NCBI GenBank assembly: GCA_025830695.1
Contig: GCA_025830695.1_4111.1
Reading direction: 5' to 3' (one strand)
Origin: a phage
DNA length: 64,000 nt
Under the pieces are notes generated by a model. The model did no database searches. It was not told the origin of the DNA and was given only the letters and a program-made list of their open reading frames with translations. The position numbers and the translations under genes were made by a program. This document shows, piece after piece, positions 1,843-2,346 of the stretch; position 1 is the first letter of the stretch; each line of letters starts with the position of its first letter.

Positions 1843-2346
1843 ATGAAATCTATTATTGCCAATAACGAAATCACCGCAAAAACTGTACGTCTTGTTACGG
1901 AAGGTGCAAGTGAGGTCATGGCAATCTCTAAAGCACTTACTTTAGCAGAAAATCAAGGATTGGATTTGGTGGTTATTGGTGCAGGTGATGAACCTGCTGT
2001 CAAAATTACAGATCTTAACAAATACAAATATGAGTTGAAGCAAGCTGAAAAGGCTTCTCTTAAAAAACAACGACAAAATGCCGTGAGTATTAAAGAGATT
2101 CAATTCAACTTTGGTACACAAGAGCATGATTTGCAGATTAAAGCAAAAAGTGCTGAAAAATTCCTTGATGAAGGAAAACATGTACATATTGTAATGAAAA
2201 CTTCAGGACGTGGAACTAATGCATCAGTAATTCAAGCAAATATTAATGCAATGGAATCATTCGTTAATCGTTTGGGTAACGTTTCATATGTTCAAAAAGT
2301 CGAGTTCCAAGGTAAAAAGGTAACCTGTACTGTCAAAGTAAAATAA
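1843..2346 (+). CDS. infC: translation initiation factor IF-3 homolog
   Basis: 167 aa aligns by eye along bacterial IF3 N and C domains (VRL, GLDLV, KYKYE, KKQ, SIKEIQF, FL-EG, GRG); GGAG RBS. Confidence 0.75.

Follow-up and report, generated by a model that had tools for sequence, protein, structure and literature searches.

Huge and jumbo phages carry genes for IF1, IF3, bS21, bS1 and L7/L12, whose proposed role is the interception of host translation (Al-Shayeb 2020, PMC7162821; Iyer 2021, PMC7824862; Mizuno 2019, PMC6375957), and phage initiation factors are often cited as evidence of giant phages reprogramming host ribosomes. The IF3 of Asteriusvirus belongs to the same auxiliary class and comes under the same ribosome-redirection hypothesis. 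Initiation factors are also the aim of another phage strategy, as the protein kinase of T7, at least as cited in PMC6375957, acts on IF1, IF2 and IF3; T7 modifies the factors of its host, whereas Asteriusvirus supplies an IF3 copy of its own. For the Rak2-like phages the CBB genome paper (2017) named IF-3 homologues in CBB (CBB_318), GAP32, 121Q, PBECO4 and Rak2, Iyer 2021 (PMC7824862) counted IF3 with the RNA and translation functions that 'group 2.2' jumbo phages encode, and the Sharanji genome paper (2025) held that no definitive function was assignable to the phage IF3. Papers from 2017 to 2025 mention the Rak2-like protein, always without a functional test, and the literature searched yielded neither a functional study of it, or of any phage-encoded initiation factor, nor expression data for Rak2-like phages.

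Why, then, return to a gene that has been annotated and discussed in print? The phages 121Q, PBECO4 and Sharanji can be cultured on E. coli, a host for which both genetics and reconstituted translation are available, and this makes their IF3 the most tractable case for the ribosome-reprogramming idea. The identification itself adds nothing beyond the existing annotation; the new leads are a conserved and putatively early unit of IF3 with a ClpS-like gene, a hairpin with a late-type motif at its boundary, and a link with bS21, ClpX and Hsp20 in related phages.

The DNA analysed, a stretch of 64,000 nucleotides here called the window, is from an Asteriusvirus (121Q/PBECO4-type), one of the Rak2-like jumbo phages, with a genome of about 348 kb. 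Over positions 1500-3000 it matches SHEFM2K, slurp01, G17, Sharanji, JP4 and other Escherichia phages with 100% identity, and 121Q with 99.3%. The coding sequence at 1843-2346 (+ strand) begins with ATG, the first start codon past the upstream stop, and specifies a 167-aa protein that is 100% identical to 121Q gp47 and to its counterparts in Sharanji (WNN14575.1), slurp01 and SP27, 99.4% identical to that of PBECO4, and 51-73% identical to the proteins of other Rak2-like genera encoded at the same genome position. In GenBank 121Q gp47, which lies between helicase and topoisomerase II genes, is annotated 'translation initiation factor IF3'. What we have at hand is the same published gene as in 121Q, PBECO4, CBB (CBB_318), GAP32, RaK2 and Sharanji, with no difference; it is real, and already known.

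An earlier note, made from the letters of the window, had read the product as a homologue of bacterial IF3 in both domains, and had put forward a search with IF3_N and IF3_C profiles whose failure to give a significant match would speak against that reading. Both profiles match significantly: PF05198 (IF3_N) at residues 7-71 with 58.9 bits against a curated cut-off of 26.9, and PF00707 (IF3_C) at residues 81-165 with 51.8 bits against 34.8. With the full-length NCBIfam infC equivalog model TIGR00168 also well above its cut-off (110.4 bits against 60), the IF3 interpretation stands. The match to PHROG 9787 (phrog_9787), the family of Rak2-like jumbo phage IF3, is full-length (E = 6e-71), and solved IF3 chains in the PDB are matched at E of about 3e-17. 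An AlphaFold model, for which 30 homologues served as input (pLDDT 84.5), consists of an alpha/beta domain at the N terminus, a long helix as linker and a beta-alpha-beta domain at the C terminus, and its superposition on full-length IF3 bound to the 30S subunit in pre-initiation complexes gives TM values of 0.74-0.79. Taken singly, the N-terminal domain of the model resembles the isolated structures 1tif and 6o6d (TMt 0.75-0.80) and the C-terminal domain resembles 1tig, 2ife and 2m71 (TMt 0.75-0.84). Judged by Pfam, TIGR00168, PDB chains and predicted fold together, the product is confirmed as a phage-encoded two-domain IF3 homologue.

The layout is that of bacterial IF3, as known from E. coli and Thermus thermophilus (PDB 5LMN, 8JSG/8JSH): two domains and a basic linker, the same fold, and the core residues R25, K/R66, Y75, K110 and R133. 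The N-terminal domain (residues 1-63) is encoded at 1843-2031, the Lys-rich linker helix (residues 64-83; helix at residues 58-79 in the model), which exceeds the E. coli linker by 2 aa, at 2032-2091, and the C-terminal ribosome-binding domain (residues 84-167) at 2092-2343. As in E. coli IF3 the N-terminal domain is acidic while linker and C-terminal domain are basic, the pI of the linker being 10.0. When 32 members of the phage clade were compared, in E. coli numbering, with 143 other IF3s, nearly all strongly conserved positions proved to be retained in the phage clade: N16, I19, V24, R25, A42, A46, D52, L53, P63, K/R66, D69, K72 and Y75 in the N-terminal half, and further on K82, K94, E95, D106, K110, F117, G121, G132, R133 and G167. 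R25, reported as invariant and of functional importance, and R66, reported as well conserved, both touch the elbow of the initiator tRNA (PMC9723500); at the position of R66 the phage clade carries K. The phage protein would most likely bind the host 30S subunit in the manner of IF3, its C-terminal domain placed on the platform and its N-terminal domain at the initiator-tRNA elbow, with the basic linker between them.

However, the phage clade also departs from E. coli IF3. Of the 143 other IF3s, 116 have R or K at the position of R131, where the phage clade has V, A or S (S in the window's protein); at the position of R99 the phage clade has T, S or N (here N). E134 has become G, three residues are inserted in the C-terminal domain after Q139, adjoining the R131 loop, and the hairpin of the N-terminal domain is 2 aa shorter through a deletion at Q33-L34. 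With non-basic residues at the R131 and R99 positions, the insertion and the shortened hairpin, canonical activity on E. coli ribosomes is not guaranteed. Could the protein then be a specialised IF3, one that binds 30S with its proofreading of start codon, Shine-Dalgarno spacing or re-initiation made looser or tighter in favour of phage mRNAs? The loss of the basic residue at R131, the change of E134 to G and the insertion after Q139, clade-specific changes beside positions that are otherwise conserved, speak for such a reading, as do T, S or N at R99 and a deletion in the very hairpin whose Q33 contacts the tRNA elbow; so too does the long separate branch on which these proteins lie. To set against this, ordinary bacterial IF3s also differ from one another at R99 and Q33, the start codons and Shine-Dalgarno spacings of the phage look conventional, and the meaning given to the changed residues would come from E. 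coli mutagenesis work, for which a search of the literature on C-terminal-domain mutants (infC135, infC362, R131P and Arg99; including PMC8266586) brought nothing usable. We regard such specialisation as unlikely, though worth keeping in mind.

In what respect is the mRNA of the phage gene ordinary? Its Shine-Dalgarno sequence, GGAG at 1829-1832 (+ strand) as read from the sequence, lies 10 nt 5′ of the ATG and is retained at a similar position upstream of IF3 in all relatives; the spacing was considered as a regulatory oddity and dropped, being at the long end yet inside the window's range. ATG is the start in 123 of the 133 crude gene calls in the window. The earlier note had suggested that a phage IF3 might bias initiation towards phage mRNAs in view of the many ATGA/TAATG junctions, or might stand in for the IF3 of the host. 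Such junctions are indeed present, 29 of 117 by a crude gene caller and 33 in the 121Q annotation, but at about a quarter they do not single this phage out: that proportion of gene junctions we take to be ordinary for phages, and it counts against specialised proofreading. In E. coli, infC uses an AUU start for autoregulation. With its ATG the phage gene would stand outside that control, the normal GGAG/AUG start letting its mRNA avoid the AUU-start autoregulation that caps host IF3. No sign of leader regulation emerged either, as an Rfam scan of 1-8000 for leader or regulatory RNA gave one chance-level match only and the predicted fold of the IF3 5′ UTR is weak (-4.1 kcal/mol), without sign of regulation.

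The reading we prefer, and hold to be rather more probable than its negation, is that of a working IF3 that acts on the host 30S subunit, is made early and is free of host autoregulation. By raising or maintaining the IF3 pool it would keep 30S subunits free and initiation-competent for the nearly all-AUG mRNAs of a 348-kb phage. Family scores, fold, kept residues, selection, retention at one position in 17 Rak2-like loci, the ATG start with its GGAG, the position-conserved promoter and the bS21 linkage described below support it; the early timing, the binding to E. coli 30S and the benefit to the phage are what we infer. The altered basic positions R131 and R99, the C-terminal insertion and the shortened hairpin tell against it, as does an identity to E. 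coli IF3 of 38% over 120 aa. Host IF3, moreover, is a stable and fairly abundant protein, and what the phage would gain from extra IF3 is not obvious.

The promoter bears on the timing. That IF3 has its own consensus promoter, as the earlier note had it, is borne out by a sigma-70-type site at 1770-1798 (+ strand) with TTGACA at 1770-1775, a 17-nt spacer and TATAAT at 1793-1798, a 12/12 match to consensus. In most of the divergent Rak2-like relatives a sigma-70-like site is found at -63 to -73 from the IF3 ATG, though the intergenic sequence itself has diverged. Matches of at least 11/12 in the window number 31 on the + strand, 10 of them perfect, against 2 on the - strand, with about 2.5 expected by chance, and the + strand excess is consistent with host-polymerase, that is early, transcription. 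Host RNA polymerase with sigma-70 would then transcribe a short unit of IF3 and the ClpS-like gene early, from 1770-1798. The placing of the gene in an early region holds only in part: the strand bias of promoters, 31 against 2, agrees with it, but what adjoins the gene is a set of replication genes and of others annotated structural. Early expression of IF3 is accordingly best worded as likely from promoter type. A second promoter-like site at 1574-1602 (TTGACA, 17 nt, TATGAT; 11/12) overlaps the start of a small gene at 1579, and a transcript from it would start inside that gene. Other + strand sites are at 19953, 34038, 35898, 36445, 45219, 52096, 53942, 55304 and 60247, most of the + strand promoters falling within a long array of small unknown genes, together with tRNAs and a sigma-factor gene.

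Thirteen nucleotides after IF3 comes, at 2360-2905 (+ strand), a gene for a ClpS-like protein of 181 aa, with a Pfam ClpS score of 24.7 bits against a cut-off of 23 and a match to PHROG 15940 at E = 2e-96. It directly follows IF3 in 17 of 17 Rak2-like loci. The protein has about 70 extra N-terminal residues and, by reading of a BLASTP alignment, a DD...H set aligned with D35, D36 and H66 of E. coli ClpS, which we take to be the N-degron pocket; that these are kept suggests a working adaptor for host ClpAP.

Between the ClpS-like gene and the next one a hairpin followed by a T-run (2917-2973, + strand) closes the unit. Its stability (-22.5 kcal/mol, z = -5.5) was reached by 0 of 200 shuffles. 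GATAAATA (2940-2947) lies in the apical part of the hairpin, and in the 3′ arm lies the GGAG Shine-Dalgarno (2963-2966) of the downstream gene, which encodes a KTSC-domain protein (2977-3522, + strand; Pfam KTSC E = 6e-14) and is the conserved neighbour behind hairpin and late-type motif. ATAAATA is a late-promoter motif reported for phage CBB (CBB genome paper, 2017). GATAAATA matches that consensus, and is like the late promoters of T4 and CBB; stem, ATAAATA and T-run are all present in the 12 of 12 Rak2-like relatives tested. With some T4 late genes the ribosome-binding site is masked in read-through RNA made early, and late transcription begins within the hairpin. The arrangement before KTSC is similar to that T4 case, and seems to unite a terminator for early transcription with a promoter for late transcription, in which the KTSC ribosome-binding site would be hidden in early read-through. 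With the sigma-70 promoter upstream and the hairpin and late-type motif after ClpS, IF3 and the ClpS-like gene can be read as a conserved two-gene early unit. KTSC is probably in a separate, late, transcription unit, and KTSC, gp50 and gp51 may together form a later unit that ends at a terminator at 5879-5913; gp50 and gp51 are annotated 'structural' in 121Q. Elsewhere in the window, the stretch 9404-9452 contains a strong GC hairpin (GGAAGACC...GGTCTTCC) and, after it, TATAAATA at 9445; placed just upstream of the 121Q 'structural protein' gp54 (about 9490), the two make a second terminator and late-promoter-like pair.

Did the phage gene come recently from a host? That it is a recently captured host gene, a functionless passenger, is a notion for which nothing was found in favour and to which we give next to no credence. 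A search of 5,426 E. coli genomes found no DNA match to the phage IF3 gene, E. coli IF3 shows the 38% identity over 120 aa already mentioned, and the GC and GC3 of the gene are those of the neighbouring phage genes. Against phages ph0011 and Turkey3, with 85-90% nucleotide identity within the gene, its dN/dS is 0.04 and 0.08, values that resemble those of neighbouring genes and mark strong purifying selection. When 1.84 billion representative proteins were searched exhaustively, 5660 matched, only 6 of them at E ≤ 1e-30; the best cellular match is 34-38% identical, figures that fit the long separate branch invoked above for specialisation. A scan of one genome per bacterial species with a single narrow peptide pattern, which is not exhaustive, found none above 38% identity. 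A neighbour-joining tree recovers the Rak2-like IF3s as a single clade in 99 of 100 bootstraps, a further point against a passenger, and groups them with the protein of Vibrio phage 2.275.O in 93 of 100. Low cellular identity, no match in E. coli DNA, phage-like GC and GC3 and low dN/dS together argue that the gene belongs to an old viral branch of its own. Its recent capture was rejected for want of a match in E. coli genomes and, within the narrow-pattern scan, of a close cellular homologue. Beyond the grouping with 2.275.O, the same tree lends no support to a single origin of all viral IF3s (16 of 100 bootstraps).

What company does IF3 keep? The order helicase, gp45, gp46, IF3, ClpS, KTSC is found in 17 of 17 Rak2-like loci, down to 51% IF3 identity, with gp50 and gp51 downstream in most and topoisomerase II seen where the locus extends that far. 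The bacterial infC locus differs: the phage gene has an ATG start, its own sigma-70 promoter and a ClpS-like gene after it, and lacks the downstream rpmI-rplT. An rplT (L20) gene is near IF3 in 0 of 77 viral loci versus 12 of 12 bacterial loci, and ClpS is near infC in none of those 12; the IF3-ClpS linkage is virus-specific, and the literature searched made no mention of its recurrence.

Outside the Rak2-like phages, IF3 blocks were found in an uncultivated aquatic clade, in Vibrio phage 2.275.O and in Agrobacterium phage Atu_ph07 (loci L040, 3746-6626; L095, 4983-6786; L096, 4673-6495; and about 42 of L021-L080). The aquatic clade, with contigs up to 342 kb, accounts for about 42 of 60 non-Rak2 viral IF3 loci, and has the order ClpX-IF3-bS21-Hsp20-ClpS, confirmed by Pfam. 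Pelagimyophages were considered as its identity, without support: no cultured phage IF3 is at least 60% identical to that of L040, and the pelagimyophage paper is without mention of IF3. In 2.275.O an NTPase and two unknown genes are followed by IF3, RpsU (bS21), a ClpS-like gene, KTSC, further genes and topoisomerase II, and this phage bridges the Rak2-like and aquatic-clade arrangements; Atu_ph07 has ClpX-IF3 near topoisomerase genes. Asteriusvirus has IF3 without bS21, whereas in 2.275.O and the aquatic clade the two are adjacent, ClpX, Hsp20 and ClpS being reported alongside. That IF3 lies beside bS21, itself a 30S protein, is the strongest circumstantial pointer to an action of phage IF3 on the small subunit.

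This neighbourhood also bears on two further readings. In one, the protein would be an inhibitory decoy that occupies the IF3 site and shuts host initiation, or a nucleic-acid-binding fold reused in a DNA-replication module. The gene does lie between helicase and topoisomerase II genes, and the fold of the C-terminal domain is distantly similar, by weak structural matches, to Alba-type DNA/RNA binders. However, both domains, the linker and IF3-specific positions are kept under strong purifying selection, the nearest neighbour in relatives is a ribosomal protein, bS21, and a decoy would block phage translation too, all of which leaves either version quite improbable. In the other, IF3 would release 30S subunits tied up in ribosomes that are idle, hibernating or blocked by stress, in slow-growing or cold hosts, or would replace host IF3 that the host or a defence system has inactivated. 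IF3 is an anti-association factor that, according to PMC7145577, releases RbfA from 30S under stress; the same phage type encodes an S30EA/HPF-like protein (Sharanji genome paper, 2025); and the genes inherited along with IF3 are ones of proteostasis and stress, ClpS here and ClpX with Hsp20 in relatives. These points are purely associative, and nothing in the window points to a defence that targets IF3. We know of no defence system that does so, and consider a role in ribosome re-mobilisation or counter-defence rather improbable, with the working IF3 described above remaining the reading we favour.

A wider proposal would join several of these strands. IF3 may be part of an old, co-inherited block for taking over translation and protein turnover (ClpX, IF3, bS21, Hsp20, ClpS and KTSC) that in the E. 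coli phages has been reduced to an early IF3-ClpS unit, with the altered C-terminal loop (the R131 position no longer basic, and three residues inserted) making the factor either differently selective or able to reactivate ribosomes, to the advantage of phage mRNAs. As a whole this is speculative and we would not expect it to prove right, though it draws on gene order and clade-specific residues alike.

Two minor observations concern candidates that might be taken to belong with phage IF3. A tRNA with anticodon CAT at 43446-43524 was looked at as an initiator partner of the protein and rejected, as it has a G1:C72 pair and C29-C31:G39-G41; by these features it reads as an elongator Met or lysidine-type Ile tRNA, without evident link to IF3. 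And in two records assigned to 'Acinetobacter phage MD-2021a' (CAKLQH020000014.1 and CAKLQF020000017.1) thrS lies beside infC, which is the bacterial arrangement, so that both records probably derive from bacteria or from the flank of a prophage and do not present a case of phage-owned IF3.
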